From assembly GCA_043821705.1 (NCBI GenBank), contig JBDRCN010000001.1, positions 8,851-72,850 on the forward strand: 64,000 nucleotides of DNA, read 5' to 3'. Below the pieces are notes generated by a model. That model ran no database searches. It was given only the letters and a program-made list of their open reading frames with translations, and had not been told where the DNA came from. Numbering within the stretch: the stretch's first letter is position 1; each line of letters begins with the position of its first letter. The translations under genes were made by a program, and so were the position numbers. Of this stretch, positions 208 through 56,867 are shown one piece after another. The stretch comes from Candidatus Omnitrophota bacterium (GTDB taxonomy: Bacteria; Omnitrophota; Gorgyraeia; Gorgyraeales; Gorgyraeaceae).

Positions 208-223
208 ATAATTTCTTTCTTAT

Positions 224-399: not shown

Positions 400-554
400 A
401 GCAGCTTGGTTGGTTCTAGAAGCATCTTGAAAATTCGAGCGGGCATGGTCCCCGCCTATTTTAGCACGATGCGGGGGAGCGAGAATTTTCATGAAGCGCA
501 GGATTCCCACGCTGGGGGAATCCAAGCGGTGCTGATAGAATCAGCCAAGCTGCT
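400..554 (+). mobile_element. Repeat family A copy A1 (MITE-like, ~155 nt, about 10-bp terminal inverted repeats agcagcttgg / ccaagctgct)
   Basis: Shares a conserved core with 2184-2338, 19526-19803 and the reverse complement of 56868-57044. The core reads ctagaagcatcttgaaaatt-gagcgggca...gagaattttcatgaagcg-aggattYcc-Ncgctgg-ggRaatcc-Ragcggtgctgatag. Confidence 0.85.
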
Positions 555-1878
555 CCTTTTCTTTACCAGAAATGTTCCGTATCTTCTCGAGATACTCCTT
601 TAACTTCTTTTCGTAGCCGATGTCTGTCGGCTCATAATATATCTTTTTCTCTGGTATATAGTCCTGCTCTACATAATGGTCTTTGTAACTATGTGCATAT
701 TTATAGCCTTCACCTTTACCTAGTTTTTTCTCTCCGCTATAAACAGCATTTTTTAAATGCTTTGGCACTTCCATGGTCCTGCCTTCCTCAACATCCTTCA
801 TCGCTTTATTTATCCCTAGATAACTTGCATTACTTTTTGGCGCGCATGCTATGTAACACACTGCTTGAGCCAGAGGGATCCTGCATTCAGGCATACCTAC
901 AAAATCAGCTACCTGGAATGCTGCATTCGCCAGCACCAAGGCCTGCGGGTCAGCATTTCCCACATCCTCACTCGCGCATATGACTATACGACGAGCAATA
1001 AATCTCGGGTCCTCTCCTCCATAAAGCATCTTTGCAAGCCAGTAAAGAGCTGCATCTGGATCAGAACCTCGCATACTCTTAATAAAAGCTGATATAGTAT
1101 CATAGTGTTCATCTTCATCCCTGTCATAGGCAATAGCTTTTTTCTGTATACTTTCTTCTGCAACCTTTAGTGTAAAATCTATCGCACCACTCTTGCCAGG
1201 TTTTGTGGTCAAAACTCCTACCTCTAATGCGTTCAAGGCCCTTCTAGCATCCCCGTCAGAGACATCACCTAAAAATTCCAAGGCCTTTTTTTCTACATTT
1301 ATTTTTTTATTACCAAAACCTCTCTCTTGATCTTTCAGGGCATTCTCCAATATTTTAACGATCTCGGGTTTAGCTAATTTTTTTAGTTCAAAGACTATTG
1401 AGCGTGATATTAAAGGTGAGACAAGTGAAAAAAATGGATTGTGCGTCGTAGCGCCTATCAAGACAGGGTTGCCTTTTTCCACATCCCCCATCAGGACATC
1501 CTGTTGCGCTTTATTGAACCTATGGATCTCATCTATAAAAAGGATGGTCTTCTTGTTGGTAGACGACTCTCTTTCCTTTGCAGAACGAAGAGCATCCCTT
1601 AACTCCTGCACATTCGAAGAGACTGCATTTATATCATGAAAGTAACTACCTGTGATCCTGGCTACCACATGGGCAAGCGTGGTCTTGCCTGTGCCAGGAG
1701 GCCCATAAAGTATAAGAGAGGATATTCTGTCAGCGTCTATTGCGCGACGCAGAAGCTTCTCTTCTCCCAATATATGTTCCTGTCCTATAAATTCATCCAG
1801 GTTCACAGGACGCATCCTGACAGCTAAAGGAGAGAACTTACTTATAGAGTTTTTTTGAGAATAAAATAGATCCGCCAT
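541..1878 (-). CDS. rarA: Recombination factor RarA/MgsA (AAA+ ATPase)
   Basis: 445-aa ORF with a Walker A motif (GPPGTGKTT) and the MgsA C-terminal domain. The last 4 codons and the stop lie inside the A1 repeat. Confidence 0.9.
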   Translation of the reverse strand: MADLFYSQKNSISKFSPLAVRMRPVNLDEFIGQEHILGEEKLLRRAIDADRISSLILYGPPGTGKTTLAHVVARITGSYFHDINAVSSNVQELRDALRSAKERESSTNKKTILFIDEIHRFNKAQQDVLMGDVEKGNPVLIGATTHNPFFSLVSPLISRSIVFELKKLAKPEIVKILENALKDQERGFGNKKINVEKKALEFLGDVSDGDARRALNALEVGVLTTKPGKSGAIDFTLKVAEESIQKKAIAYDRDEDEHYDTISAFIKSMRGSDPDAALYWLAKMLYGGEDPRFIARRIVICASEDVGNADPQALVLANAAFQVADFVGMPECRIPLAQAVCYIACAPKSNASYLGINKAMKDVEEGRTMEVPKHLKNAVYSGEKKLGKGEGYKYAHSYKDHYVEQDYIPEKKIYYEPTDIGYEKKLKEYLEKIRNISGKEKEQLG

Positions 1879-2136: not shown

Positions 2137-2153
2137 AGCAGCCACCCGCTGCT
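2137..2153. repeat. Family B remnant (joined terminal IRs agcagc|cacccgctgct, footprint-like)
   Basis: gccacccgctgct equals the B-family terminus, and only the two ends are present back to back. Confidence 0.5.
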
Positions 2154-2183
2154 AAGCGAAAAGTTGTATGACGCTATATAGTA

Positions 2184-2338
2184 GCTGTCTTGGCTCAGAC
2201 CTAGAAGCATCTTGAAAATTAGAGCGGGCACGGTTGCCCTAGACCATACATGTCTTGCAGAGCGAGAATTTTCATGAAGCGAAGGATTTCCTCGCTGGGG
2301 AAATCCGAGCGGTGCTTATAGGGCTGAGCCAAGACAGC
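2184..2338 (+). mobile_element. Repeat family A copy A2 (15-bp TIR gctgtcttggctcag / ctgagccaagacagc)
   Basis: Core identical to A1 except for compensatory changes in the ggatttcc/ggaaatcc stem. Its 3' end abuts the pheT stop codon. Confidence 0.85.
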
Positions 2339-4399
2339 CTAACGTATCTCTACGCCCAGCTTTTTTACAAGCGCTTCTTGTACTTTCATATGAAGAGCCT
2401 GGACATCTTCATCTTTCAGGGTTTTTTCATCCGAACGATATTCTACGCTATAAGCTAAACTCTTTTTGCCATCTTGTATCTGTTGGCCCTTATATATATC
2501 AAAGATGTCAATGGAAGTTACTAGCCCTCCTCCTTCAGCCCTTATGACATTAAATATGTTTTCAGCGCTTAGATCATTACTAGCGATCATCGATATATCT
2601 CTCTTCATGGAGGGATATTTAGGAAGTGCCTTGAACCTGGTAGGTATTACGTGATCTATTAGTTCTTCAAAATCTATCTCAGCAATATAAACCTTGTCCT
2701 TGATATCGAAGAACCTGGCTGTCTTTTCCTTGACCTCTCCGAGACTACCTATCTTGATATTCCCGATCTTTAAGTCTAAGGCCATGTCTTCCCTAAAGAT
2801 AGTGTACTCGCCTTTTTCCAGCTTATAGTCTTTCACACCTAAAGAGACCAAGAATTTTTCTACCACGCCTTTCATGTCGAAGAAATCTATCTCTCGAGAA
2901 TGTTCTTTCCAATTGCCAGGAGTATTCCCGAATATAGCCATAGAGACCATGTTTTTTTCTTTTATCTCGTTCTTGGCCCTGTCTATACTATAGACCTTAT
3001 TGATCTCAAAAAGTTTGACAAGAGAATTTCTTCTATTTATATTCCAGCTTAATACCTCGAGCATCTCTGCGACAAGGGTTGGCCTCATGAATGCCTGATT
3101 CGCACTTAATGGATTTTGTAAGCGAACTACATTGTCAAATGATATGCCCAATGTCTCAATGCTAGCACGACTCGTAAGAGTATAAGTGACTACTTCGTTA
3201 AGCCCGAGTCTTGTCAATATCTCTTTTGATCTTTTTTTCAAGGCAGTGAGTGTCTTCTTTTCTTCTTCGTATAACTTCCCTATAGAAAGTCTTGGCAGTT
3301 TTGAAGGTACCTTATCATAGCCATATATACGGACGATCTCCTCTATGAGATCAATATCTCTTTCCAGATCCTGCCTATATATAGGTACTTTTACTGTTAT
3401 CTTATTCTTTGTCTTCTTGGAGATCTTAAGATCTAATCCTGCTAAAGATGCAATAACATCTTTTCTACTGATATCTATCCCTAATATCCTGGGTATCTCG
3501 CCTAGATCTAAAGATATCTCTTTTTCTTTTAAGATCTTTCCTCCTACATCAGTAAGATTTCCTGAGCACCTAGCTTTGGCAATATTCTTTATCATCTCCT
3601 GCGCTCTCATACTAGCTGAATAGACCATTGCAGGATCCACTCCTCTTTCAAATCTATAGCTTGATTCAGATGCTAGAGCTAATTTTCGTTGTGTCTTTCT
3701 TACGCTGACTGGGTCAAAATATGCGCTCTCTAAAAATATTGTCTTGGTCTCTTCAGTGATCTCAGTGTCCAGGCCTCCCATAATACCTGCTACTGCAACT
3801 GGTTTTACATCATCAGCTATTATAAGCATTGTAGGGTCAAGCTCTCTTCTTACACCGTCAATAGTGGTAAGCTCTTCTCCTTTTCTAGCGCGCCTGACAA
3901 TGATCCTTTGTTTTTCTAATTTCTCCAAGTCAAATGCATGGAGGGGCTGGCCTGTCTCAAATAATACATAATTAGTTATATCAACTATATTATTTACGCT
4001 TCTTACTCCCATGGCATTCAGTCTCTCGACGAGCCATTCAGGAGAAGGCCCTACTTTTACATTTTTCATAATGCATCCTACATACCTAGGGCAGGCTTTT
4101 TTATCCTCTATCTCTACTTTTGCCTTGCCCCTGGCTGGACCCTTTTTCATGTAAGATTTTTTTATAGACGCTGGCAGATTAAGAGTCTTCTTAGTAGCAC
4201 TGGCTAGTTCTCTAGCTACACCTATAATAGACAGGCAATCAGGCCTATTGGGCGTGATCTCTATATCCATGACATGGTCTTTACCCGTCTCTAAAGAACC
4301 TTCTACTTCAAGGCCTGTCATGGTAAGAGCTTGTTTTATCTCTTCAAGCCCTGCTTTTATATGGACAAAATCCTTTAACCAGTTTAATGTAACTCGCAT
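2339..4399 (-). CDS. pheT: Phenylalanine--tRNA ligase beta subunit (no N-terminal OB/tRNA-binding domain)
   Basis: 686-aa ORF whose N-terminus is MRVTLNWLKDFV and which has B3/4, B5 and FDX-ACB domain signatures. Confidence 0.9.
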   Translation of the reverse strand: MRVTLNWLKDFVHIKAGLEEIKQALTMTGLEVEGSLETGKDHVMDIEITPNRPDCLSIIGVARELASATKKTLNLPASIKKSYMKKGPARGKAKVEIEDKKACPRYVGCIMKNVKVGPSPEWLVERLNAMGVRSVNNIVDITNYVLFETGQPLHAFDLEKLEKQRIIVRRARKGEELTTIDGVRRELDPTMLIIADDVKPVAVAGIMGGLDTEITEETKTIFLESAYFDPVSVRKTQRKLALASESSYRFERGVDPAMVYSASMRAQEMIKNIAKARCSGNLTDVGGKILKEKEISLDLGEIPRILGIDISRKDVIASLAGLDLKISKKTKNKITVKVPIYRQDLERDIDLIEEIVRIYGYDKVPSKLPRLSIGKLYEEEKKTLTALKKRSKEILTRLGLNEVVTYTLTSRASIETLGISFDNVVRLQNPLSANQAFMRPTLVAEMLEVLSWNINRRNSLVKLFEINKVYSIDRAKNEIKEKNMVSMAIFGNTPGNWKEHSREIDFFDMKGVVEKFLVSLGVKDYKLEKGEYTIFREDMALDLKIGNIKIGSLGEVKEKTARFFDIKDKVYIAEIDFEELIDHVIPTRFKALPKYPSMKRDISMIASNDLSAENIFNVIRAEGGGLVTSIDIFDIYKGQQIQDGKKSLAYSVEYRSDEKTLKDEDVQALHMKVQEALVKKLGVEIR

Positions 4400-5069: not shown

Positions 5070-6089
5070 CTAAAACTGTTTTAGAAATCTAATATCATTT
5101 TCATAAAAAAGCCTTATATCATCTATCCCGTGCTTAAGCATACAGATCCTGTCAATACCCATGCCAAACGCAAAACCAGTATATTTTAAAGGGTCATATT
5201 TTACGCATTCAAAGACCCTGGGGTTTATCATCCCGCATCCTAGTATCTCCAGCCATCCTTTATGAGAACAGACCCTGCAGCCCTTGCCTCCGCATATAAA
5301 ACATGATATATCCACTTCAGCTGATGGCTCTGTAAAAGGAAAATAATGCGGCCTGAACCTCATCTTAACATTATCCCCAAAATATTCTTTAGCGAATTTT
5401 TCTAGTAACCCCTTCAGGTCGCTGAACACTATTCCCTCATCCACCATAAATCCCTCTATCTGATAGAACATGAATGAATGCGATGCATCTACTGCATCAG
5501 GCCTATATACCTTCCCAGCATGTACTATCTGTATAGGTGGTTTTTCTTTTTCCATGATCCTGATCTGAGCAGTAGAGGTCTGGCTTCTAAGGAGCATGCC
5601 ATTTTCTACATAAAATGTATGGAATGTCTCTCGTGAAGGATGGTTGCTTGGTATGTTAAGTGCTTCAAAATTATAAAACTCTGTTTCTATCTCGGGAGAA
5701 TCCACTGATTTAAACCCAATAGAAGTAAATATGTTTATTATATCCTCCATGGTCTTCATCAGGGGATGAGCATGCCCTATCTCATTTTTTATACCAGGAA
5801 GCGATGTGTCTTTATATTCAAAGCGCGATCTCTCTTCTTCCTTGAAGGCATTTTCCTTTTCCTCTATCAAGCCGGAAACCTTGTTCTTCATCTCATTTAT
5901 AAACTGCCCTACTTTTGGTTTATCTTTTTTTGGCACGTTCTTGAGACCTTTAAAAGAAAGCGTGATCTCGCCCTTTCTGCCAAGATATTTTATCCTAAGC
6001 TCTTCAATGCCTGCTAAAGAACTTGCTTCCATCACTTCTTTCAGCGCGCTCTTTTCTATATTTTTAAATTTTTCCATTGCCTTCATCAT
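5070..6089 (-). CDS. pheS: Phenylalanine--tRNA ligase alpha subunit
   Basis: 339-aa ORF with class II aaRS motifs (FRPHYFPFTEP, GMGIDR). Confidence 0.95.
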   Translation of the reverse strand: MMKAMEKFKNIEKSALKEVMEASSLAGIEELRIKYLGRKGEITLSFKGLKNVPKKDKPKVGQFINEMKNKVSGLIEEKENAFKEEERSRFEYKDTSLPGIKNEIGHAHPLMKTMEDIINIFTSIGFKSVDSPEIETEFYNFEALNIPSNHPSRETFHTFYVENGMLLRSQTSTAQIRIMEKEKPPIQIVHAGKVYRPDAVDASHSFMFYQIEGFMVDEGIVFSDLKGLLEKFAKEYFGDNVKMRFRPHYFPFTEPSAEVDISCFICGGKGCRVCSHKGWLEILGCGMINPRVFECVKYDPLKYTGFAFGMGIDRICMLKHGIDDIRLFYENDIRFLKQF

Positions 6090-6793: not shown

Positions 6794-8152
6794 TTATCCT
6801 ACCATTACCTTCTCTGTAGGATATTTATAAAAGATTTTATCCTCTTTCATTGCTACTGCTAATGCGAGCGTAAGAGGGCCAACCCTCCCTACGAACATAG
6901 TTATCATTATAACTATCTTCCCAAGAACACTGAGAAGCGGGGTGATGCCTGTTGAAAGCCCTACTGTCCCAAATGCTGATGTCACTTCAAATAATATCCT
7001 TAAAAAATAATTCGGCATCAATAGATTCTTTTCTTCGATAAAACACAGTAGCATTGTGACCACTACTATCCATGTGAGCGATAATCCAGCTATCATAACT
7101 GCTTTTCTAAATATAGGCTTTGGTATAGTGCGTTTAAAGATCTGTATATGGTTCCTATTTTTTATCATGCTGAGCGCGCCTGCTATCAAGACACCGAATG
7201 TGCAGGTCTTTATGCCTCCTCCTGTAGAACCAGGAGAAGCCCCTATGAACATAAGTAAAATCATAAAAAATAACGTAGGGCTCGTAAGAGCCATCATAGG
7301 TATTGTATTGAACCCTGCTGTCCTAGTAGTCGTGGACTGAAAGAATGAAGTAAGGAATTTTTCCTTCCACGACAAACCTTCTAAAGAATAACTATTTTCC
7401 AGTATAAGAAACGCTACTGCACCCACCACCAAAAGAGACACGCTTACACTAAAAGCTATTTTTGTCTGTAAGCTCAATTTTGACATGAGCTGCTTTATGT
7501 CTTCATTCGTCCTTAAGAATATTTTTTTAAAGAACCACTTGAATATCTTTGGGATATCGATAAGTACTATAAAACCTATGCCGCCTAATATAATAAGCGC
7601 CATCATCACAATGTTCACGAACATATCAGATCTATAATTTATAAAACTGCTACTATTGAGAGAAAAACCAGCATTGCAAAAACTAGATATAGAATGGAAC
7701 ACTGAGCTATCTATGTCAGCGAACCTTCTATTGAATAATACTGCGCCTATTGCCTCTATCCCGAACGTTATCCCTAACACATAAAGGATAAGGCTCTTTA
7801 AACCCACTACGCTATGATGGTCCATTGCGCTTTTTACAACAATGTTCTCACGTAAAGTAAGCTTTCTGCCTAAAAGTATAGCAAAGAACGTGGACATGGT
7901 CATTATGCCAAGCCCGCCTATCTGCATAAGAAAGAGTATTATTCCCTTACCAAATCTCGAAAAATCCTTGCCAGTATCTCTTACTATCAGGCCTGTCACA
8001 CAAGTAGCGCTCGTTGCAGTGAACAATGCATCCACTCCACCTATAGATCTCCCATTCGCAGAACTCTGCGGCAGGGAAAGGAGGATAGCGCCTATGCATA
8101 TTGCAACAAGAAAGCTTATTAAGACCACTTGTGCTGGTTTAAGTTTACGCAT
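6794..8152 (-). CDS. trkH: Potassium transporter TrkH/KtrB family
   Basis: 452-aa polytopic membrane protein with repeated GGxG selectivity-like motifs. Confidence 0.85.
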   Translation of the reverse strand: MRKLKPAQVVLISFLVAICIGAILLSLPQSSANGRSIGGVDALFTATSATCVTGLIVRDTGKDFSRFGKGIILFLMQIGGLGIMTMSTFFAILLGRKLTLRENIVVKSAMDHHSVVGLKSLILYVLGITFGIEAIGAVLFNRRFADIDSSVFHSISSFCNAGFSLNSSSFINYRSDMFVNIVMMALIILGGIGFIVLIDIPKIFKWFFKKIFLRTNEDIKQLMSKLSLQTKIAFSVSVSLLVVGAVAFLILENSYSLEGLSWKEKFLTSFFQSTTTRTAGFNTIPMMALTSPTLFFMILLMFIGASPGSTGGGIKTCTFGVLIAGALSMIKNRNHIQIFKRTIPKPIFRKAVMIAGLSLTWIVVVTMLLCFIEEKNLLMPNYFLRILFEVTSAFGTVGLSTGITPLLSVLGKIVIMITMFVGRVGPLTLALAVAMKEDKIFYKYPTEKVMVG

Positions 8153-8502
8153 TATTTTTTATTTGCGATCTCTACTATCTTCTTAAAAGTGCTCTTATCA
8201 TTAGCTGCTATATCAGCTAAGACTTTTCTATTTAAGGCTATCTTAGAATCCTTAAGGGACTTTATAAATTTACTATATGATACCCCTAGTTCCTTACATG
8301 CATTCGAGATCCTAAGTATCCAGAGATTTCTAAATGTCCTCTTCTTTGCCCTTCTATCTCTCGTGGCATACATCAGAGCCTTGTTCACTGACTCCATTGC
8401 ATTCCTGTGCCACTTACTTCTTCCAGCCCTCTGGCCCTTAGCAAGTTTTGAGACCTTTTTTCTGCGAGCCCTTGATGCTGGGCCGTATTTTACACGTGCC
8501 AT
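8152..8502 (-). CDS. rplT: 50S ribosomal protein L20
   Basis: The 116-aa ORF begins MARVKYGPASRARRKK. Confidence 0.95.
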   Translation of the reverse strand: MARVKYGPASRARRKKVSKLAKGQRAGRSKWHRNAMESVNKALMYATRDRRAKKRTFRNLWILRISNACKELGVSYSKFIKSLKDSKIALNRKVLADIAANDKSTFKKIVEIANKK

Positions 8503-8521
8503 CTTCGTTACCTCCTAATTT

Positions 8522-9322: not shown

Positions 9323-11038
9323 TCATATTTTCTTTTCCTTAATCTCCTTTTCTATCCTAGTTAAAAATTCCTCTAGTTTTATTGTACCGGCGTTCCCGCC
9401 TTTTCTAGTCCTTAAAGAAATGGTCTTGTTCTCTTGTTCCTTGTCCCCGACGATAACTGCGTAAGGGATCTTTTGTAGTTCTATCTCTCTGATCTTATAC
9501 TGGAGTTTTTCATTCCTTTTATCAATAGTGGCGCGTATGTCTTTTGCCTGAAGCACGTTCAATATCTCATCAGCATAATCATGGGACCTGTCAGTTATAG
9601 GGATCACACTTACTTGCACTGGGCTTAGCCATACTGGAAAAGCGCCTGCGTAATGTTCTATCAGCGTACCCATAAAGCGTTCCATGCTTCCTAAAACTAC
9701 CCTATGGAGCATAACTGGTCTTTCTTTTTTGCCTTCCTTTGTCACGTAATGGAGATTAAACCTCTCGGGAAGGGCAAAGTCACACTGCACAGTCGCGCAC
9801 TGCCAAGGCCTGCCTAAAGCATCCTTGACCATGATATCTATCTTAGGCCCATAAAAAGCACCTTCACCTTTGTTCACTTCATATTGCATGCCTTTATCAT
9901 CAAGTGATTTCTTAAGCGCATCTGTAGCCCTGTCCCACATCTTCAGGTCCCCGATATATTTCGGAGGCCTTGTAGAAAGATCTATTTTATAATCTGTAAA
10001 ACCAAACACTTTCATGACATCCATTACAAAGTCTATTACTTTTTTTATCTCACTCTCTGCCTGTTCAGGGAGACAAAATATATGAGCATCATCCTGAGTA
10101 AAGCCCCTTACTCTTAAAAGCCCATGGAGAACACCTGACTTTTCTCTTCTGTGCACATTCCCTAATTCAAAATATCTTATCGGCAAATCTCTATAGCTTC
10201 TTATATCTGACTTATAGATAATCATATGAGCTGGGCAATTCATTGGTTTTATAGCATACTCTTCGCCTTCGACTTTAAAGATATACATATTTTCTTTATA
10301 GTATTCATAGTGGCCTGAGGTCACCCAGATATCTGATTTTAATATATGAGGGCCTTGGACTAGCTGATACCCTCTTTTCAAATGTTCTTTTTTCACATAA
10401 TCTTCTATGAGCATCCTTAGAAGAGCCCCTTTTGGATGGTAAAACACAAGGCCTGCGCCTACTTCTTCATGGATACTAAAAAGATCTAATTCTTTCCCTA
10501 GTTTTCTATGATCTCTTTTCTTTGCTTCTTCTCTTAAATTTAAGAATTTTTCCAGGGCTTCTTTGTCTTTAAAGCAAGTCCCATATATTCTCTGAAGCAT
10601 TGGATTTGTCTCGATCCCATGCCAGTAAGCTCCTGCAATGTTTAAAAGCTTAAATGCCTTTACTTCACTTGTCCTAGATACATGAGGGCCTTTACATAAG
10701 TCGACAAATTTTCCATGTTTATAAATAGATACCTTATCCCCTTCAATCTTTTCTATAAGTTCTTTTTTATATGGTTCGCTTTTAAATATGTTTAGAGCCT
10801 CTTTCTTGGGGATCTCTTCATGTACAAACTCAATGTCAGATCTTATAATGCTCTTCATCTCTTTTTCGATCCTTGCCAGGTCTTCTGGCTTAAATCCATC
10901 AGCAAGGTCAAAATCATAATAGAACCCGTCTTCAATAGATGGACCAATAGCGAATTTAGCTTTTGGAAAAAGCCTCTTCACTGCATCTGCCATTATATGC
11001 GAACAACTGTGTCTTAAAGCGTGTAAATCTTCTTGCAT
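9323..11038 (-). CDS. thrS: Threonine--tRNA ligase
   Basis: 571-aa ORF with TGS/second-additional domains and a class II core. Confidence 0.95.
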   Translation of the reverse strand: MQEDLHALRHSCSHIMADAVKRLFPKAKFAIGPSIEDGFYYDFDLADGFKPEDLARIEKEMKSIIRSDIEFVHEEIPKKEALNIFKSEPYKKELIEKIEGDKVSIYKHGKFVDLCKGPHVSRTSEVKAFKLLNIAGAYWHGIETNPMLQRIYGTCFKDKEALEKFLNLREEAKKRDHRKLGKELDLFSIHEEVGAGLVFYHPKGALLRMLIEDYVKKEHLKRGYQLVQGPHILKSDIWVTSGHYEYYKENMYIFKVEGEEYAIKPMNCPAHMIIYKSDIRSYRDLPIRYFELGNVHRREKSGVLHGLLRVRGFTQDDAHIFCLPEQAESEIKKVIDFVMDVMKVFGFTDYKIDLSTRPPKYIGDLKMWDRATDALKKSLDDKGMQYEVNKGEGAFYGPKIDIMVKDALGRPWQCATVQCDFALPERFNLHYVTKEGKKERPVMLHRVVLGSMERFMGTLIEHYAGAFPVWLSPVQVSVIPITDRSHDYADEILNVLQAKDIRATIDKRNEKLQYKIREIELQKIPYAVIVGDKEQENKTISLRTRKGGNAGTIKLEEFLTRIEKEIKEKKI

Positions 11039-11069: not shown

Positions 11070-11121
11070 GGCCTGCCATCCGAAGCCAGACTTTCAAATC
11101 GCCTTTCGTAAAGGCGTAGGA
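11070..11121 (-). repeat. Repeat family D copy D1 (tcctacgccttt-CGAAAGGC-...-ctggcttcggatggc), immediately 3' of tRNA-Val
   Basis: Matches 36348-36399 (3' of tRNA-Gln) and 45661-45714 (3' of bamA). It contains the hairpin cgccttt-acg-aaaggcg. Confidence 0.7.
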
Positions 11122-11198
11122 TGGTGGGCTCAAGAGGACTCGAACCTCTGACCTCTTCCATGTCAAGGAAGCGCGCTATCCAACTGCGCCATGAGCCC
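11122..11198 (-). tRNA. tRNA-Val (anticodon GAC)
   Basis: Minus-strand cloverleaf with the anticodon loop ccttGACatgg and a T-arm ggttcgagtcc ending in CCA. Confidence 0.8.
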
Positions 11199-11199
11199 A

Positions 11200-11309
11200 T
11201 CAAATTTGTTCTACTTCGCTCTTCGACCTACTAATCGATGGTAGAGCTTCGTAGGAATCATTCTTCGAAGCCCCACCGGAATATTTTATACTCAAAGGGC
11301 GTAGAAGAA
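11200..11309 (-). repeat. Repeat family E copy E1 (~105 nt tRNA-trailer element)
   Basis: Its reverse complement aligns with 36534-36640 (ttcttcttcgccctttgagtataaaatactccggtggggcttcgaagaatgattcctacgaagc...). This alignment is why the six-frame ORFs 11200..11391 and 36482..36691 share the peptide ILLRPLSIKYSGGASKNDSYEA. Confidence 0.75.
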
Positions 11310-11397
11310 TGGTGCCGGGGGTGGGACTCGAACCCACAAGACCTTTTGGGCCACAGGATTTTAAGTCCTGCGTGTTTGCCAATTTCACCACCCCGGC
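11310..11397 (-). tRNA. tRNA-Leu (anticodon TAA), long variable arm
   Basis: Minus-strand sequence gccggggtggtgaaattggc...ggacTTAAaatcc...ggttcgagtcccacccccggcacca. Confidence 0.8.
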
Positions 11398-11398
11398 A

Positions 11399-11479
11399 TT
11401 CAGTTATTAGATTTTAGTTATTAGTTGTTAGAAAAACATGCAATTCTAAAAACTAAAAACTGACAACTAAAAACTAGTT
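11399..11479 (+). repeat. Repeat family F copy F1 (imperfect palindrome built of agttgttag / ctaaaaact units)
   Basis: Second copy at 41360-41457, with shared core agttgttagaaaaa-N-ttctaaaaactaaaaactgacaactaaaaact. Confidence 0.7.
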
Positions 11480-12239: not shown

Positions 12240-12760
12240 TTAACTACTATTTCTACGTCCTGTATATGGCCCAATCCTTCATCCCCGCAAGCTAATTTAC
12301 CTTTTATAGGACCGCTGAAGAAATAACCGAGCTTCTTAAGCTTAGCTATGTTCTCCTGCACGATCTTGTTTTTATACATGCCCTTATTCATAGCTGGGAC
12401 GAACAATACAGGAGCTTCACTAGCGCATATAGTACAAGTAAGCATATCATCACATATGCCTGCTGCGACCTTAGCGATAATATTAGCTGTTGCAGGCATT
12501 ACCACGACAAGATCTGCTTTTTTAGCAAGTGATACATGCTCTATATCCCATTTATCAGGCGTATCAAACATGTTATATGTCACTACCTTATTGCCTGATA
12601 AACCTTGGAACAATAATGGCCTTATAAATTCTTCTGTTTCTTTTGTAAGAACAATGTGTACTGATATATTCTTTTTACATAAAGACCTGACCAGCTCAGC
12701 TGATCTATAACAAGCTATGCTCCCTGTCACGCCTATCAGTACATTTTTTTTATTCATCAC
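12215..12760 (-). CDS. coaC: Phosphopantothenoylcysteine decarboxylase CoaC flavoprotein domain
   Basis: 181-aa ORF beginning NVLIGVTGSIACYRSAELVRSL; its stop overlaps the CoaB frame. Confidence 0.85.
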   Translation of the reverse strand: MMNKKNVLIGVTGSIACYRSAELVRSLCKKNISVHIVLTKETEEFIRPLLFQGLSGNKVVTYNMFDTPDKWDIEHVSLAKKADLVVVMPATANIIAKVAAGICDDMLTCTICASEAPVLFVPAMNKGMYKNKIVQENIAKLKKLGYFFSGPIKGKLACGDEGLGHIQDVEIVVKEVNRLLR

Positions 12761-14978: not shown

Positions 14979-15845
14979 CTATCTATTTGATTTTAAAAGA
15001 GTTATAATCTTTTCCAGATCATTATCCGAGTAAAATTCTATCTCTATCTTCCCACCTTTTTTTGATCTTATGATCTTTACTTTTGTGCCTAATGCATTTC
15101 TAAGCTCTTCTTCAAGAGAAGTCAAGTTTGGATCTTTTTCTTTGATAGTCTTCTTTTGTCCAGTTGATATATTTTTTGCGTATCTCTCTGTGTCTCTTAC
15201 AGATAGGTCATTTTTTACTAATTTTGTAAAAAGCCTCATCTGCTCTTGCGGATCTTGCAATCCAAGAATAGCTTTTGCATGCCCCATTGAAATTGTTCCA
15301 CGTGAAACATTTTCCTGTATCTTCTGAGGAAGCTTAAGAAGCCTCACGATATTAGCTACAGTAGCTCTATCCTTGCCAATAGTGTCAGCTATCTTTTCCT
15401 GTGTAAGGTTAAACTCATCTATAAGGCGTTTATAAGCTTTTGCCTGGTCAATAGGATTAAGGTTCTCACGTTGGACATTCTCGATAATAGCTAACTCAAA
15501 AGAATCCAGGTCCGATACATCCTTGATAATAGCTGGGATATGTGTTAGATTAAGTGATTTCGCAGCTCTATACCTTCTCTCGCCTGCTATTAACTCATAT
15601 TCACTGCCTTTTGCCCTTACAAGAACAGGCTGTATGACTCCTTTTTCGCGTATTGAAGCAGCTAGGTCTTCAAGCGATTGCTTGTCAAAGCCTTCTCTAG
15701 GCTGATATTTGTTAGCATTGATCTTGTCGATCGGTATATTAGCTATGCCTTGTATGATGCTTGAATCTAGTATCTTTGATTGACTTTGGGATGCTTTATC
15801 TGGTATTAAAGCTCCTAAACCTCTTCCGAGAACTCTTTTTTCCAT
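14979..15845 (-). CDS. parB: Chromosome partitioning protein ParB
   Basis: 288-aa ORF with the ParB box GERRYRAA. Confidence 0.9.
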   Translation of the reverse strand: MEKRVLGRGLGALIPDKASQSQSKILDSSIIQGIANIPIDKINANKYQPREGFDKQSLEDLAASIREKGVIQPVLVRAKGSEYELIAGERRYRAAKSLNLTHIPAIIKDVSDLDSFELAIIENVQRENLNPIDQAKAYKRLIDEFNLTQEKIADTIGKDRATVANIVRLLKLPQKIQENVSRGTISMGHAKAILGLQDPQEQMRLFTKLVKNDLSVRDTERYAKNISTGQKKTIKEKDPNLTSLEEELRNALGTKVKIIRSKKGGKIEIEFYSDNDLEKIITLLKSNR

Positions 15846-16663
15846 TCTTGTTCTCCTCCTTCAGTTATGGGCTCTGTAGTTTCTGTAGTTATGTTAGATC
15901 CTGATCGTTCCCCTAAAACTTCCTTAGCAAGGCTTTCATATGTCTTCGCCCCACTAGAATTCTTATCGTATAAGTGTATTGGCCTGCCAAACCCAGGTGC
16001 TTCGCTTAATCTTATGCTACGTGGTATAGTAGTAACAAAAACCTTTTCTTTAAAATAATCCCTAGCTTCTTTAATTACCTCTGCTGTCAGATTAGTCCTA
16101 AAATCTGCCATAGTGAGAAGCACTCCTTCTACTTCCAGTTCTGGGTTAAGATTCTCTCTTGCTATATTAATTGTATTGAGCAATTGGCTAAGTCCTTCAA
16201 GTGCATAATATTCACATTGTATTGGGATTAAAACAGAATTACATGCAGCTAGAGCATTGATCGTCAATAATCCTAGTGATGGTGGAGAATCAATAATAAT
16301 AAAATCAAACTCATCCTCAAGGCCTTTAAGAGCATTCTTCAAACGATATTCTCTATTCATCAAACTGATAAGTTCGATCTCAGCGCCTGTTAAATTAATA
16401 TTAGAAGGTGCTAATTTTAGATACTCACTATGCACTTCAAGTATTATATCTTTAATGTTCACATTATTAATCAATACATCATATATGTTTTCAGATATAT
16501 CTGCTTTATTAATGCCAAGACCGCTAGTAGCATTCCCTTGAGGGTCAAAATCTATCAACAGGACCTTTTTCTGATTAAGCGCTAGATAAAAGCTTAGATT
16601 GATCGCAGTAGTTGTTTTTCCTACTCCGCCCTTTTGATTACATATAGCTATAATTTTGCCCAT
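15815..16663 (-). CDS. parA: Chromosome partitioning ATPase ParA/Soj (acidic C-terminal extension)
   Basis: The 282-aa ORF carries the deviant Walker A motif KGGVGKTT. Confidence 0.9.
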   Translation of the reverse strand: MGKIIAICNQKGGVGKTTTAINLSFYLALNQKKVLLIDFDPQGNATSGLGINKADISENIYDVLINNVNIKDIILEVHSEYLKLAPSNINLTGAEIELISLMNREYRLKNALKGLEDEFDFIIIDSPPSLGLLTINALAACNSVLIPIQCEYYALEGLSQLLNTINIARENLNPELEVEGVLLTMADFRTNLTAEVIKEARDYFKEKVFVTTIPRSIRLSEAPGFGRPIHLYDKNSSGAKTYESLAKEVLGERSGSNITTETTEPITEGGEQEWKKEFSEEV

Positions 16664-18730: not shown

Positions 18731-19061
18731 TTTCTAGGTCCTTTTGGACTTCAGGGCCTCTAGTATTTTCTTGCAGGCTTTGAGCCAATATGACAATATC
18801 TAAAGGTCTATTTAAAACATGCTTGTTTAATCTATACGCTTCTCTTAAAAGGCGCCTGTAGCGATTCCTTAGAACTGAATTTTTATTACATAAGCGCTTG
18901 CTTATTACAAAAGCAACCCGCTTTTTAGGTAAGCCGTCATCTCTCTTATGGATATATAGCTTTAGGAACCTGCCTTTTATTGGGGTACCAGTACGGAAAA
19001 TATCCTTGATCTGGTCATATTTTCGTAGGCGTTCTTCTTTTAAGAAGGCGTTTCGCTTCAT
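18696..19061 (-). CDS. rnpA: RNase P protein component
   Basis: 121-aa basic ORF placed between rpmH and yidD. Confidence 0.85.
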   Translation of the reverse strand: MKRNAFLKEERLRKYDQIKDIFRTGTPIKGRFLKLYIHKRDDGLPKKRVAFVISKRLCNKNSVLRNRYRRLLREAYRLNKHVLNRPLDIVILAQSLQENTRGPEVQKDLENVFKKFIKKSD

Positions 19062-19198
19062 TAAACTGTAAGCTTTTTCTTGCCTTTTCGCCTTCGGCGC
19101 TTCAGTACTCTTCTGCCGTTAGCGCTTTTCATCTTGCGTCTAAAACCATGCTTACGCTTACGTTTTAAATTGCTTTTCCTGGTAAGATTCTTTTTCAC
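19061..19198 (-). CDS. rpmH: 50S ribosomal protein L34 (GTG start; absent from ORF track because <60 aa)
   Basis: Reverse-complement translation gives [45 protein letters not shown]. Its stop overlaps the rnpA ATG by 1 nt. Confidence 0.9.
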
Positions 19199-19278
19199 GT
19201 TATTCTCCTTGTAAGGGTAGCATTATAACACAATGCGTTTTATCGTCAAGAAAAAAATGGTTGCTTTACATCAAGGAA

Positions 19279-19290
19279 CGGGTCCTGTCC
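19279..19290. repeat. Family B terminal fragment (cgggtcctgtcc)
   Basis: Matches the B1/B2 terminus and lies adjacent to C1. Confidence 0.45.
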
Positions 19291-19309
19291 GCCTTAATAG
19301 CCACACCAA

Positions 19310-19492
19310 CCTAACCCTAGCCTGTGACCTTTGGCGCTGGAACACCGCGCCGTGTTCTACGGTTTAGAGCTCGCTCTACGAATAGAGCTTTCGCCTTTAG
19401 TCAGGCTCGATCTCGCTCTAAAGCCTTGAACACTTCATGTTTAAATACTACGGGATGCCGCTATGTTCCTGATGCGCCAAAGGCTCTCAGCC
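19310..19492 (+). mobile_element. Repeat family C copy C1 (~185 nt, 28-bp TIR cctaaacccagcctgtgacctttggcgc)
   Basis: About 90% identical to 53469-53660. Internal hairpins include gaacac-cgcgcc-gtgttc and ctcgctcta direct repeats. Confidence 0.85.
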
Positions 19493-19525
19493 TAGGTTTG
19501 GTTAGCATATAGCTATTAGCGGATG

Positions 19526-19803
19526 GCTTGGCTCATCCCTAGAAGCATCTTGAAAATTTAGAGCGGCCTGCCCGCCGAAGCTTTAGCGTAGGAGGGGCAC
19601 GGTTGATAAAGCGAAGTTTCCTGCTCTTACGCATTAGTTATTTGAAGATTATTGCACTGTAAAAGCTATTATTAATTGTATATCAGTAACCATGGTTCGC
19701 AGGGAACCAGCATATCTATTAATTATAAGGCTGGTTTCATGAAGCGCAGGATTCCCACGCTGGGGGAATCCAAGCGGTGCTGATAGGGGTGAGACAAGAC
19801 AGG
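19526..19803 (+). mobile_element. Repeat family A copy A3 (with ~150-nt internal insertion)
   Basis: The 5' and 3' conserved blocks are identical to A1/A2, and the middle is expanded (19563-19735). Confidence 0.8.
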
Positions 19804-19825
19804 CCGCTAATAAATATATTTTCCT

Positions 19826-19853
19826 TGAAATGGAAAAATCTTACTGTTATAAT
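19826..19853 (+). promoter_or_regulatory. Candidate sigma70 promoter for dnaA (TTGAAA-16/17-TATAAT)
   Basis: The sequence ttgaaatggaaaaatcttactgttataat ends about 10 nt before the dnaA ATG, which implies a near-leaderless transcript. Confidence 0.5.
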
Positions 19854-19862
19854 GTTTGACCT

Positions 19863-21203: not shown

Positions 21204-21358
21204 TAGTGTTGATAATATGTATTTTTTTGTGGATTATTTTTGAATTGTAACTATAATAGGATAATTGAGTTTGGGATTTATCAACATATCAACACTACTT
21301 AGTATTACGACTACTACTTTTCAATATAAAAGATAAGTAGAAAGGCTTAGGAGGGACT
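21204..21358. other. Candidate oriC/DUE segment between dnaA and dnaN with three DnaA-box-like 9-mers
   Basis: tgttgataa and ttatcaaca (TTATCAACA, 1 mismatch, inverted pair) plus tgtggatta (TAATCCACA) in an AT-rich context. Confidence 0.45.
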
Positions 21359-25362: not shown

Positions 25363-28300
25363 ATGTCGCATTTTATGCTCCATAAGCCAAGCGCTCGTAA
25401 AATGTACACACAAAATGAAAAATTAGTCCCAGTCTATATTGAAGATGAAATGAAGAATTCCTATATTACGTATGCAATGAGCGTAATAGTAGGAAGAGCT
25501 CTTCCTGATGTCAGGGATGGTCTAAAGCCAGTACATAGAAGGATCCTCTATGCAATGAGAGAGCTGGGGCTGGAACATAGCAAGGCTTATAAAAAATCAG
25601 CCAGGATCGTTGGAGAATGCTTTGTAAAAGATACTCTGGTATTGACACAAAAGGGCCTGGTCCCTATTCAGGAAATCGAGCGGGGCGACAAGGTATTCAC
25701 GCAAAACGCGGCAAGGAGTGTTAGCGAGTTATACGAGATGCCAAAGAGAGAACTCCTTAAAATCACACTGGAAAACGGTACCAGCAACATAGCTACATTT
25801 TCGCAAAAATTTAAGGTATTGAATAAAAATCTAGAGTTTGTATGGAAAGAGGCAAAGGAACTCAATAAAAATGATTATATTGTTATAAGAGCGCATTATC
25901 CTGAAATTAAAGATATGGCAGGTTTGAAGCGCTCGGCAGCAAGGCATCCGTTTTATTTGAATGAAGATATAGCGTATATTTTAGGGCTTTTAATATCAGA
26001 TGGCTGGATCGAGAGGCCCAACGGAAGGCAGCGGAACAGGATGTGCTTTTATTCTGCCAATAGAAAAGTTATGGAGAAAGTGAGTTCGATGTTCGAAAGA
26101 GCGTTTGGTTATAGGCCGAATATCGAGGAGAAGATACATAAAGGAACCACAAAGGACGGCAAGCCATTAAAGAAGGGATATTCAGTAAGGATTAATAGGC
26201 AGGCTATAAATGATTTCTTTGCGGCAAATTTTCACTTGGAAGGACTTAAGGCGAAAACCAAGATAATCCCGCAACAGATATTTGTTTCTCCAAAGAGAAT
26301 AATATTTGCTTTTGTTGCGGGGCTTCTTGAAGGAGATGGCAGCATTCATCGCGGAAGAAATGTTGTACATTATGGATCTATTTCAGAGAAATTGATAGAT
26401 GGTTTGGCAGTGCTTTTACAGCACCAGGGTATTTTTGGCAGGAAATACAAGGCAAGATCTTCAGCGTCTAGTAGTTATATAGGAGGCAGGCTAGTTGCAC
26501 GCAGAGAGGTTTTTTATAGCTTGGAATTCAGAAGCTCTAACGCATTACTATTAGCGTCCAATATTAATCTTGTTGATAAAAAGAAGAACGCCAGGCTGCG
26601 CAACCTTTTTACCAATAGAATAATTCCTTCGGGCCAGGATATTATACCTTATGGAGGGGCCAGGATATTTGAAGAACTTAGCGCAAGACATATAGGAGGC
26701 GGCTGGTACAAGGGGGTTAATGGCAGCAAATTTAAACAAGGCATAAAATATCCTGATGGAGCTAAGATAAGATATTCGCATAATCTTCTAGAAAAACCTT
26801 TGAGAAAATCTCAAGTTCTAGAATGGGGGATTAAAGAAAAATTAGAAAGATTAGGATCGCCCCTCTCTGTTTTTATTGACAATATAGTAGATAATAAAAT
26901 TTATTTCTCGAAAGTTTCATCGGTAGAAAAATCAGCCCCGCAAGTAACATACGATATCCAGGTTGAACAGGATCACGAGTTTATCGCAAACGGGATGATT
27001 TCTCATAATTGTCTTGGTAAATATCATCCTCATGGAGATACAGCAGTATATGACTCGCTAGTCAGGATGGTGCAGGATTTTTCATTGAGGTATCCTTTGG
27101 TGGATGGACAGGGGAACTTCGGGTCTGTCGACGGTGATGCTCCTGCAGCAATGAGGTATACTGAAGCTCGCATGGCATCTATCGCGGATGAGATGCTCTC
27201 GGATATTGACAAAGGCACAGTAGATTTTACTCCTAATTTCGATGAAACACTGGAAGAACCGACTGTCCTGCCTGCGAAATTGCCAGGGCTATTAGTAAAT
27301 GGCTCCAGCGGTATAGCTGTGGGCATGGCAACTAATGTCCCACCACATAATCTATCTGAGATAGTGGATGCTATTGTAAAATTGATCAGCGACCCAGGGT
27401 GTTCTATTAAAGATCTGATGAAAATTGTTAAAGGGCCTGATTTTCCAACAGGAGGGATCATCTGCGGCAGAGAAGGCATTAAAAAAGCTTATGAAACAGG
27501 CAGAGGCCTTTTAAAGCTTCATGCAAAAGCAGCAATAGAGCAGCAAAAAGGCAACAAAGAAGCTATTATTATTACAGAGATCCCTTACCAAGTAAATAAA
27601 TCAAAGCTCATTGAGAATATGGCAAGCCTTGTACAGGATAAAAAAATAGAAGGCATTGCTGACATAAGGGACGAGTCCGATAAAGATGGTATGAGGATAG
27701 TAGTCGATCTAAAGAGAGACCAGAACGCACAGATCGTTTTAAACCAACTCTATAAACGTACCCAGATGGAGATGACCTTTGGCGTCATCACATTAGCATT
27801 AGTGGATCTCAGGCCAAAGGTATTGAACTTAAAAGAAGTACTTGAATTATACATAAAACATAGAATTGAGATCATAAAAAGAAGAACACAATTCGAACTG
27901 AATAAAGCTGAAAGAAGAGCTCATATATTAGAAGGGCTGAAAATAGCAATAGACAATCTCACTAAGATCATAAAGACCATAAGAGAATCAAAAGATCCTA
28001 AGATAGCCAAAGACGCATTAATGAAAAATTTTGATCTTTCAGAGGTCCAGGCGCAGGCTATTTTAGAGATGCAGCTTCAGCGTCTTACTGCACTTGAGAG
28101 AGGGAAGATAGAAAAAGAATACCTGGAGCTATTAAAGAGAATAGAGATGTTAAAATCTATATTAAAGAGCGAGAAGAAGATATTAGAGATCATAAAGGAC
28201 GAAGCATTAGAGGTTAAGAAAAAATACGGGGATGAACGTAGAACTGAAATAGTAGCGAGGCAGGAAGAGATCGAGATAGAAGACCTGATAGCAGAAGAAG

Positions 28301-29223
28301 ACATGGTTATCACAATAAGCCATTCTGGTTATATAAAACGCCTCCCAACAGGTTCTTACAAAAAACAAAAACGAGGGGGAGTAGGCGTAACAGGCATGGA
28401 TATGAAAGATGAAGATTTTATCGAGCATCTTTTTATCGCTTCTACTCATGAATATATACTATTTTTTACTAATCAAGGGAGAGTGCATTGGTTAAAGGTA
28501 TATGAGATACCACAGGCTTCCCGCTCCGGAAGAGGCAAGGCAGTAGTAAACTTATTACAGCTTTCATCAGGGGAAAAGATCTCTTCTTATGTCAGGGTAA
28601 AAGAATTCAAAGAAGGATTATATCTTGTGATGGCTACCAAGAACGGCCTTATCAAGAAGACAGATCTGATGGCTTATTCAAACCCAAGAAAAGGCGGGAT
28701 AATAGGCATTACTATCGAGAAGGATGACGAACTTATAGAAGTTAAGTGGACAGATGGCAGCCATGAAATAATGTTGGCGTCCAAAGAAGGAAAGGCTATC
28801 TGTTTTTCAGAAAAGCAAGTCAGGGATATGGGTAGAGGCGCAAAAGGAGTAAAAGGGATAAAGCTTGGTAAGAAGGATGAGCTTATAGCAATGGACATAG
28901 CGAGAAAAGACGCGACTGTCTTAACAGTTGCTTCTCAAGGTTTTGCAAAGCGTACATCTATAAACGAATATAGAAAACAGTCTAGGGGCGGCAAGGGTGT
29001 AAAGAATATAAGCGTTACGAGTAAAACCGGAGAAGCTGTAGGTGTATTGATGGTACATGACAATGACGAGCTTATGGTCATGACTGTGAAAGGAATGATC
29101 GTAAGGTTCGCTGTGAAAGATGTCCGCGCTACAGGCAGAAGCACCCAGGGGGTCCGCATAATAAAACTTGATCCTGGCGACAAGGTAGCAAATGTTGCTC
29201 GAGTGATCCCAGAAGAAGAATAG
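25363..29223 (+). CDS. gyrA: DNA gyrase subunit A containing an in-frame intein (mature GyrA is 822 aa)
   Basis: 1286-aa ORF. Extein motifs: [44 protein letters not shown]. The true start is probably M14 (25402). Confidence 0.95.
25618..27009 (+). other. GyrA intein (464 aa) with LAGLIDADG homing-endonuclease domain
   Basis: Begins with Cys ([10 protein letters not shown]) right after RIVGE and ends in ...ISHN followed by +1 Cys ([10 protein letters not shown]). Two LAGLIDADG blocks are present: [11 protein letters not shown] and [10 protein letters not shown]. Confidence 0.9.
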
Positions 29224-36273: not shown

Positions 36274-36347
36274 TGCCTGGTAGTGTAATGGTAACACATC
36301 AGCTTTTGGAGCTGAGTTTCTAGGTTCGAATCCTAGCCGGGCAGCCA
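36274..36347 (+). tRNA. tRNA-Gln (anticodon TTG)
   Basis: Sequence tgcctggtagtgtaatggtaacacatcagctTTTGgagctga...ggttcgaatcctagccgggcagcca. Confidence 0.8.
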
Positions 36348-36399
36348 TCCTACGCCTTTCACGAATAGCGAATAGAACGTCTGGCTTCGGATGGCGAGG
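36348..36399 (+). repeat. Repeat family D copy D2 (immediately 3' of tRNA-Gln)
   Basis: The sequence tcctacgcctttcacgaatagcgaatagaacgtctggcttcggatggcgagg aligns with D1 and D3. Confidence 0.7.
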
Positions 36400-36512
36400 T
36401 AGTATTAGGATTCGAATGGAGTCCCGCGCTGACGAATAGGAAGAAAAGCTACGACGAAAAGGAGTAGCACCAGCGGGACGGATGGCCGACCCTGAGCGGA
36501 TGCGAAGGGCGC

Positions 36513-36533
36513 CGAATCCTAGCCGGGCAGCCA
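36513..36533 (+). repeat. 21-nt duplicate of the tRNA-Gln 3' end (cgaatcctagccgggcagcca)
   Basis: Identical to 36327-36347 but without the upstream T-stem or the remainder of a tRNA. The result is direct repeats 166 bp apart, resembling attL/attR. Confidence 0.7.
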
Positions 36534-36640
36534 TTCTTCTTCGCCCTTTGAGTATAAAATACTCCGGTGGGGCTTCGAAGAATGATTCCTACGAAGCCAT
36601 ACCGTCGATTAATAAGTTGAATGGCGTAGTAGAACATATT
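36534..36640 (+). repeat. Repeat family E copy E2
   Basis: Aligns with the reverse complement of 11200-11309. Confidence 0.75.
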
Positions 36641-45659: not shown

Positions 45660-45660
45660 C

Positions 45661-53459: not shown

Positions 53460-53468
53460 CTACCTTAA

Positions 53469-56858: not shown

Positions 56859-56867
56859 GACTTGCTG

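Follow-up and report, generated by a model that had tools for sequence, protein, structure and literature searches.

In a window of 64,000 nucleotides from a contig of an uncultured Candidatus Omnitrophota bacterium, the window being the whole stretch of DNA that was analysed, the intergenic spacer that separates rpmH from dnaA is filled from position 19279 to position 19803 by approximately 525 bp of hairpin-forming repeats: a remnant of a repeat family designated B, a copy of a family designated C (C1), and a copy of a family designated A (A3). The interpretation that we favour, and to which we assign a probability of roughly 0.6, is that this block represents an accumulation of lineage-specific, non-coding hairpin repeats, of the class that includes miniature inverted-repeat transposable elements (MITEs), enterobacterial repetitive intergenic consensus (ERIC) sequences and Correia elements, which were inserted neutrally between two promoters. 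Families A, B and C are new, lineage-specific families of a well-known kind of bacterial repeat, and they do not constitute a new system.

That the cluster consists of inserted repeats, as an earlier note on this DNA had proposed, is borne out by the corresponding loci of three relatives (L081, L082 and L083, whose DnaA proteins are 76-79% identical to that of the window, L081 being the closest), in which the spacer between rpmH and dnaA measures 99, 147 and 157 bp, compared with 664 bp (19199-19862) in the window. The spacer in these relatives amounts to two divergent promoters, with nearly nothing between them in the closest relative, and the comparison of spacers that the note had suggested reveals no shared conserved region corresponding to the block, which is absent there. 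In the window the block falls exactly between the rpmH and dnaA promoters, both of which are intact and score higher as promoter matches than anything else in the region. The note had estimated that approximately 60 bp were left for a dnaA promoter, and the roughly 59 bp that remain on the 3' side of the block do hold a strong one.

All four of the loci which carry family A in the window are empty in relatives, a polymorphism that is observed between species and not between strains. The pheT and rarA sites were compared with L084, L085 and L087, and the glnA site with L089 and L090. The interval from the pheT stop codon to the rarA start codon spans 223 bp in L084, where it is essentially the 6S RNA gene and its promoter, and 460 bp in the window, where 206 additional bp (copy A2 together with a B remnant) have the TAG stop codon directly on one side and the 6S promoter directly on the other; the empty junction in L084 reads TAG^ATTTTG. 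Between rarA and the gene that follows it, which is a ThiI-like gene for tRNA modification, there are 68-73 bp in the relatives and 333 bp in the window, and the interval from the glnB stop codon to a conserved block upstream of glnA is 14-75 bp in the relatives and 490 bp in the window. None of the three families was found in any of 90 fetched loci, related and unrelated, by BLAST, nhmmer or covariance-model search, nor was there a match in a metagenome collection (two scans with conserved family-A motifs), in viral contigs (one scan for each family) or in plasmid and phage collections (BLAST). Rfam 15 gives no match over any copy, either at the gathering score or at E<=1-10; its matches are solely to 6S RNA and tRNAs.

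The relatives are not free of intergenic palindromes of their own. L082 and L083 each have a different small palindrome at the position of the rpmH-dnaA insert, and this gap is for that reason regarded as a recurrent landing site; unrelated small palindromes belonging to the relatives occur at two of the family-A sites. In L085 a palindrome of 37-47 bp recurs at no fewer than 10 places within 21 kb (among them 2479-2515, 3702-3738, 7034-7070, 9708-9741, 12387-12423 and 16263-16299), and L087 contains several palindrome families of 30-68 bp (5948-6003, 12395-12450, 15643-15698 and others). Since the relatives bear their own unrelated families, the colonization of gaps by private palindromes can be regarded as a habit of the clade, and families A, B and C of the window are larger examples of these private intergenic palindromes.

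The three components of the cluster that the earlier note had described in the rpmH-dnaA spacer, a B fragment, a C copy and an A copy, were all recovered. The B remnant is recognized by an 11-mer, GGGTCCTGTCC, which occurs at exactly three sites in 64 kb, namely 19280, copy B1 (230) and copy B2 (57266), whereas only 0.32 occurrences would be expected by chance even in a search that tolerates one mismatch. Over 213 nt the core of C1 (19308-19520) shares 91.5% identity with 53467-53677 within copy C2 (BLAST, E 1.6e-80), the profile match extends over 19296-19538 (nhmmer E 2e-91, with a self-match on the reverse strand), and the fold z-score of C1 is -4.7. The terminal inverted repeats (TIRs) of 28 bp which the note had attributed to the C element hold approximately: those of C2 are perfect over 30 bp, and those of C1 are imperfect. 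Copy A3 is composite in its similarity. Its 5' portion of approximately 56 nt (19512-19566) is 86% identical to 2173-2227 in A2, its 3' part (19735-19786) is identical at 52 of 52 positions to 487-538 in A1 and 88% identical to 2270-2337, and its outer inverted repeat (I2) runs out to 19507-19522 and 19804-19819. The three intact copies were used to build a covariance model of family A, under which 19521-19804 receives 79 bits as an element of full length that contains a large insertion. Both BLAST and this model therefore agree with the description of A3 as an expanded element, the expansion being a unique core of approximately 150 bp (~19586-19732) that matches nothing else, whether in the window or in the other sequences searched. 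The unique core takes the place of the 3' strand of an inner stem, P2, and A3 is considered a disrupted copy because that strand has been removed. A second 11-mer, CCGCTAATAGC, was considered as a possible bracket around C1 and A3 and was rejected: it occurs elsewhere at chance frequency and is merely part of A3's extended inverted repeat.

Across the window, to which all copy counts for the three families refer, there are four copies of family A, three of them intact, and one isolated 3' fragment of that family, two copies and two remnants of family B, and two copies of family C (Table 1); profile and covariance-model searches of the window found no others. The A fragment at 57300-57346 is 81% identical to 19763-19809, and the right-end 12-mer of the B remnant at 2137-2153 is exact, where 0.07 occurrences would be expected by chance. 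Copies from separate loci have diverged from one another, to identities of 76-92%. Family A measures approximately 155-177 nt, family B 89 nt, and family C, a foldback with 30-bp TIRs, approximately 215-245 nt; the outer arms of family A extend over ~20-29 bp and the arms of family B over 9-12 bp. The elements, of 89-283 bp, are small and non-coding, the only open reading frame (ORF) within them being one of 62 codons in C1 which is broken in C2 by the change TCAGG to TTAGG. Their fold z-scores range from -3.4 to -6.6. All copies lie in intergenic DNA, typically just past a stop codon or before a promoter.

Table 1. Positions of repeat copies, promoters, genes and the probable replication origin in the window.
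Feature	Position	Strand	Remarks
Family B copy B1	223-311	+	89-nt hairpin; 88.8% identical to 57283-57195
Family A copy A1	400-555	+	Covariance model 168 bits; site empty in L084, L085 and L087
Family B remnant AGCAGCCACCCGCTGCT	2137-2153	+	Both ends present, interior deleted
Family A copy A2	2173-2339	+	Covariance model 160 bits; adjoins pheT stop codon
yidC, yidD, rnpA, rpmH	Left of rpmH-dnaA spacer	-	
rpmH (L34)	19061-19198	-	ORF; Ribosomal_L34 at syntenic position in L081
rpmH promoter, TTGACG-16-TATAAT	19222-19249	-	Extended -10; 11/12 match; conserved in L081, L082 and L083
Family B left-end remnant	19279-19291	+	11-mer GGGTCCTGTCC exact at 19280
Family C copy C1	19296-19540	+	TIR-bearing core 19308-19520; palindromic over full length
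Family A copy A3	19521-19803	+	5' arm 19521-~19585; core ~19586-19732; 3' part 19733-19803
dnaA promoter, TTGAAA-17-TATAAT	19825-19853	+	Extended -10; 11/12 match; aligns with relatives' promoters
dnaA	19863-21203	+	ORF; 100% identical to DnaA of an Omnitrophota metagenome-assembled genome (NCBI)
dnaA, dnaN, dciA, gyrB	Right of rpmH-dnaA spacer	+	
Probable oriC	21204-21358		dnaA-dnaN spacer, 155 bp; boxes at 21207, 21228, 21278, 21286
Family C copy C2	53451-53690	+	Perfect 30-bp TIRs at 53467-53496 and 53633-53662
Family A copy A4	56867-57043	-	Covariance model 194 bits; begins 9 nt past glnB stop codon
Family B copy B2	57195-57283	-	89-nt hairpin, full copy
Isolated family A 3'-end fragment	57300-57346	+	Inverted relative to A4; nhmmer E 0.003

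These repeats would behave as non-autonomous mobile or self-propagating palindromes, mobilized in trans by an enzyme whose gene lies in another part of the genome. At the rpmH-dnaA locus they would have landed in the sole dispensable stretch, the handful of bases that separates the -35 boxes of the two promoters, with an effect that was neutral or nearly so. Repeats would accumulate in gaps that are already occupied because the DNA of an earlier insertion is the only place nearby where another can do no harm.

Among known repeats of this general kind are the Correia elements of Neisseria and the ERIC sequences, or intergenic repeat units (IRU), of enterobacteria. Families A, B and C resemble MITEs and these elements in being 90-250 bp long, non-coding and intergenic, in having TIRs or folding back over their whole length, and in occurring as several diverged copies per genome which are present or absent between related genomes; as in ERIC sequences, stems are maintained by compensatory changes. 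They differ from the described MITE-like families in that there is no sequence similarity and no parent insertion sequence (IS), in the three-way junction of family A, and in the constant pairing of A with B, and unlike Correia elements, which duplicate TA, they are without a clear target-site duplication. Another class consists of the repetitive extragenic palindromes (REPs), 20-40 bp palindromes with a terminal GTAG or CGTC tag (PMC3733652), which, together with the bacterial interspersed mosaic elements (BIMEs) and the REPINs, are mobilized by the REP-associated tyrosine transposases called RAYTs (Di Nocera et al. 2013, PMC3733652). Families A, B and C are like REPs and BIMEs in being species-specific extragenic palindromes, mostly 3' of coding regions, that cluster into mosaics; they are unlike REPs in their length (89-245 bp), in having no terminal GTAG or CGTC, and in the lack of any RAYT gene in the window. 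It is the 30-60 bp palindromes of the relatives that look REP-like, two of them, both single, carrying the GTAG tag (16288-16319 in L081 and 14813-14843 in L087). The IS200/IS605 elements, finally, are distinguished by differing subterminal hairpins, the absence of TIRs, a conserved 4-5 nt target on the left, and an orientation tied to replication. In the arrangement of B, intervening DNA and A the hairpin ends differ and, in 4 of 4 cases, the orientation with respect to replication is uniform, though confounded with gene direction; A and C have TIRs, and the left flanks (CTTAT, ATCTT, TACTT and AAGGA) share no fixed motif. A target of the IS91 type, CTTG or GTTC at the block ends, was sought by eye, was seen at two junctions only, and was dropped.

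The position of the block next to dnaA requires that it be considered in relation to the origin of replication. GC skew places the chromosome origin at this locus: the skew abruptly switches sign, being about -0.17 to the left and about +0.18 to the right, and the cumulative G-C curve has its minimum in a valley at 19.0-21.2 kb, so the origin is not elsewhere, an outcome for which the earlier note had allowed. The exact minimum (19492) is inside the repeat block; the valley is flat over its entire extent, and the skew therefore does not tell which of two spacers, that of rpmH and dnaA or that of dnaA and dnaN, holds the origin. As the note had reported, box-like 9-mers occur between dnaA and dnaN: 3 of the 17 boxes in the window that have at most one mismatch (21207, 21228 and 21278) fall in this spacer, where 0.04 would be expected. 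A fourth box there has two mismatches, no box there is a perfect match to the consensus, and three further two-mismatch boxes lie just outside, at 21169 and 21187 in the end of dnaA and, further upstream, at 20932. The dnaA-dnaN spacer is 73% AT, it is 155-163 bp long across the relatives with a column identity of 81%, and it is far more conserved than the rpmH-dnaA spacer outside its promoters. Within it TTTTTTTGTGGAT is invariant among the window and L081-L083, and TTATCAACATATCAACA is wholly kept in L081 only, L082 and L083 differing from it at one or two positions. The last box is followed by GACTACTACTT and then by an AT-rich stretch. The DnaA-trio model, reportedly advanced by Richardson et al. 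in 2016, is said to involve 3'-GAT-5' repeats, and the run that follows the last box (GACTACTACTT, with CTACTACTT beside the box) is one that we take to be DnaA-trio-like.

With its boxes, AT-richness, skew switch and conservation, the sequence at 21204-21358 points to a probable oriC that is compact, continuous, and situated between dnaA and dnaN throughout the clade. Origins normally flank dnaA and can be continuous or bipartite (PMC4285127), and the placement proposed here is the same as in known dnaA-dnaN origins associated with the rnpA-rpmH-dnaA-dnaN-gyrB cluster (Wolanski et al. 2015, PMC4285127). The likeness extends to the boxes TGTGGATTA, TTATCAACA and others, to the presence of CTACTACTT adjoining the last box, and to the AT-rich stretch, the GC-skew switch and the conservation across relatives; unlike a typical origin of this type, the spacer is very compact (155 bp) and contains no perfect box. 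The earlier note had treated the rpmH-dnaA spacer as the usual place of oriC, a view which is not upheld, given that the relatives' spacers are boxless and the dnaA-dnaN spacer is conserved. No DnaA box with at most one mismatch is found in the rpmH-dnaA spacer of the window or of any relative examined, and the three boxes with two mismatches in that of the window (one at 19601) correspond to the background rate. The block could nevertheless be imagined to be part of oriC or of the regulation of dnaA, for example as the upstream half of a bipartite origin, of which examples around dnaA are known (PMC4285127), with unwinding in the core of A3, which has a GC content of 28-35% (~19620-19730) and contains the two-mismatch box at 19601; the location of the exact skew minimum would also agree with this. 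We consider such a role very improbable, however, because boxes with at most one mismatch are missing from the 664-bp spacer, because the block is absent from every relative, because the skew valley is too flat to separate the two spacers, and because the dnaA-dnaN spacer is conserved and has every feature that would be expected of an origin. No origin has been displaced by the repeat block, the rpmH-dnaA spacer being a short promoter region in this clade, and the insertion of repeats is tolerated there because the origin lies in the dnaA-dnaN spacer.

Several observations weigh against the interpretation of the block as neutrally accumulated, independent MITE-like repeats. No autonomous partner of the repeats and no transposase, integrase or HUH enzyme was found in the 64-kb window, in which only housekeeping genes were identified by a survey that assigned Pfam families to 40 of the 56 ORFs with 90 or more codons and relied on synteny with annotated relatives for most of the others; nor was a related IS element found. 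Inspection by eye of filled and empty sites gave no convincing target-site duplication at any copy: there was no duplication of 3 bp or more, only ambiguous TA dinucleotides, and the TA that flanks B2, a B remnant, A2 and A3 is indistinguishable from an extension of the inverted repeat. Strict MITE status is consequently unproven, since target-site duplications are not demonstrable in spite of exact empty sites, and the label of MITE that the earlier note had applied is not established. The copy numbers, moreover, are those of 64 kb. In addition, families A and B are not arranged at random with respect to each other. They occur together at 223-555, at 2137-2339, at 56867-57346 and at the dnaA locus, neither being found alone in 64 kb, so that the common order which the note had reported for the first three of these loci also holds at the fourth; in each of the four, B or the remnant of B flanks A on one constant side and keeps a constant orientation relative to it, an arrangement with p ~1/64 under independent and unconstrained insertion. 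Finally, family A is predicted to fold into a three-way junction, made up of a long outer stem and a pair of inner hairpins, and 14 of the 57 predicted pairs show two-sided compensatory change among the three intact copies (one of these pairs belongs to the local hairpin P3, and one U.G pair is invariant), while the forward strand is richer in G.U pairs than the reverse strand. Compensatory changes and a G.U bias are not obviously expected of purely selfish, decaying MITEs.

The arrangement of A and B raises the question, which the earlier note had left as a choice between a nest and a composite unit, of whether there is a single composite, non-autonomous element with B at one end and A at the other that moves as a unit and could carry or acquire unrelated DNA, the filler at the dnaA locus being a copy of C. 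Beyond the constant side and orientation and the lack of solo copies, such an element would account for the pheT locus, where the whole 206-bp block occupies a gap of ~5 bp between the stop codon and the 6S promoter, and for the inverted family-A termini that bound the block at 56867-57346. It would also suit the glnB-glnA locus, where the idea that the DNA between B and A is ancestral intergenic spacer can be ruled out: the 151-bp filler between A4 and B2 is unrelated to the 14-75 bp of the relatives, and it therefore counts against a simple independence of A and B. Against a composite element, the DNA between B and A, of 21, 88, 151 and ~230 bp, is unrelated across loci (alignment scores are at the level of shuffled sequences), B is reduced to remnants of 11-17 nt in two of the four loci, B sits 13-63 nt inside the block boundary and not at its edge, and no conserved target sequence or duplication surrounds the blocks. 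The shared orientation would follow equally well if only one orientation relative to transcription were tolerated; as the genes all run in the direction of replication, a preference of each family for one orientation relative to transcription or to replication would likewise produce the observed uniformity, and as the permissive targets are only a few bp wide, second insertions would be forced into or next to the first. The association of A with B is thus non-random at 4 of 4 loci, and the unrelated filler does not fit a fixed unit. A composite element, the principal alternative, is on balance unlikely, though by no means negligibly so, and independent, orientation-constrained elements that accumulate in safe havens are favoured.

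The properties of family A itself could instead indicate a functional structured nucleic acid on the forward strand whose structure is under selection, either a three-way-junction RNA or a single-stranded DNA hairpin recognized by an HUH-type enzyme. The compensatory pairs and the invariant U.G pair speak for this, as do the fold z-scores of family A (-5 to -6.6) and the stability of the forward strand, which as RNA folds better than the reverse strand by 8-23 kcal/mol in 4 of 4 copies. The forward strand, however, is located on the template of the leading strand and runs antisense to all of the genes around it; it has no promoter, and scans for promoters and terminators around the A copies gave no consistent signals. 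Family A furthermore has no homologue in the relatives or collections searched, even with the covariance model, and no match in Rfam at E<=1; all of its copies are recent insertions that are absent from relatives. Template switching in quasi-palindromes can yield compensatory changes without selection. Because this route could mimic compensation, and because the count of compensatory pairs derives from just three intact sequences, the strand asymmetry was not taken as evidence for an RNA gene, and a selected function for family A is judged improbable. Messenger RNA structure, hairpins on the lagging-strand template and a C-to-T bias were each considered as sources of the asymmetry, and none explains it. 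A combination of the two preceding ideas, in which A and B would form an undescribed two-ended element that acts through strand-specific folding of the three-way junction, as single-stranded DNA or as RNA, is similarly doubtful; if true, it would explain the G.U bias, the compensatory changes, the uniform orientation and the obligatory pairing together, and it would point to an unrecognized mobilization system in Omnitrophota. It might also be supposed that the block is an artefact of repeat-induced mis-joining or collapse, given that the contig comes from a metagenome-assembled genome and that repeats are classic sites of misassembly. This is exceedingly unlikely in view of the synteny with relatives over more than 20 kb on both sides, the intact ancestral promoters directly on either side of the insert, and the divergence of the copies, which at 76-92% identity would not collapse.

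These results leave current understanding unchanged; only the constant pairing of A with B and the strand asymmetry seen in family A could lead to something new. The practical consequence for annotation is that oriC in this clade should be placed in the dnaA-dnaN spacer, and that a long rpmH-dnaA spacer is no sign of an origin. The locus also illustrates that even the tightly packed and highly conserved origin neighbourhood of a streamlined genome can absorb repeats provided that they land between divergent promoters, and that related Omnitrophota lineages each have private families of intergenic palindromes, some of them at the same positions.

The gene order around the spacer is given in Table 1. 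The first gene of the rpmH-rnpA-yidD-yidC operon is rpmH. Apart from the identical protein listed in Table 1, the nearest DnaA proteins are 74-79% identical, all from Omnitrophota, and the best match in a collection of species-representative genomes is just 54% identical. All genes with Pfam support in the window are on the minus strand to the left of the origin and on the plus strand to its right; the sole exception to co-orientation with replication is a doubtful 129-codon ORF (8129-8518), which has no Pfam match. The -10 hexamer TATAAT of dnaA ends 9 nt 5' of the ATG, no Shine-Dalgarno sequence is present, and this geometry is kept in L081-L083; judged from this spacing, dnaA appears to be leaderless or nearly so.

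Further observations concern the genes that adjoin the other repeat copies. The last residues and stop codon of RarA come from the right arm of A1 (541-567), and the protein has 445 residues here, compared with 437-442 in relatives, which align to just 98% of its length. The 6S RNA gene lies between pheT and rarA at 1894-2079 on the minus strand (Rfam, 94 bits), and its promoter, TTGCTT-17-TATAAT, is retained directly downstream of the insertion of A2 and the B remnant. Copy C2 sits between a DUF3108 gene and the gene of a GerE-type regulator; at exactly this position L089 has an extra gene for a 266-residue DUF748/AsmA-like protein (3444-4244), which suggests that the loss of a gene here, or its gain in L089, was associated with the C2 repeat. 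The conserved block upstream of glnA (57349-57440), shared with L089 and L090, contains GATAAAAAAGAGGTTACCAAAAAG...TTTTTTACTTGTATAA followed by the palindrome CACAAAGTTTGTG, and is probably a promoter with a putative binding site for a nitrogen regulator.

Other small repeat families in the window (11071-11475, 36322-36640, 41363-41433 and 45659-45713), distinct from families A, B and C, occupy the spacers of the tRNA-Val/Leu/Cys cluster and recur 3' of tRNA-Gln, in the gap between rpsR and rplI, and after bamA; for example, 11203-11319 is 88% identical over 118 nt to 36640-36523 in inverted orientation. The last 20 nt of tRNA-Gln, GAATCCTAGCCGGGCAGCCA (36328-36347), are repeated exactly 166 bp downstream (36514-36533), a duplication that looks like the footprint left by an element upon its integration at the 3' end of tRNA-Gln. 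The GyrA protein (25363-29223, plus strand, 1286 residues) carries an intein in its topoisomerase domain (Intein_splicing, residues 115-549) that holds a LAGLIDADG homing endonuclease (residues 314-381); the GyrA proteins of L081 and L082, having only 808-809 residues, are intein-free.

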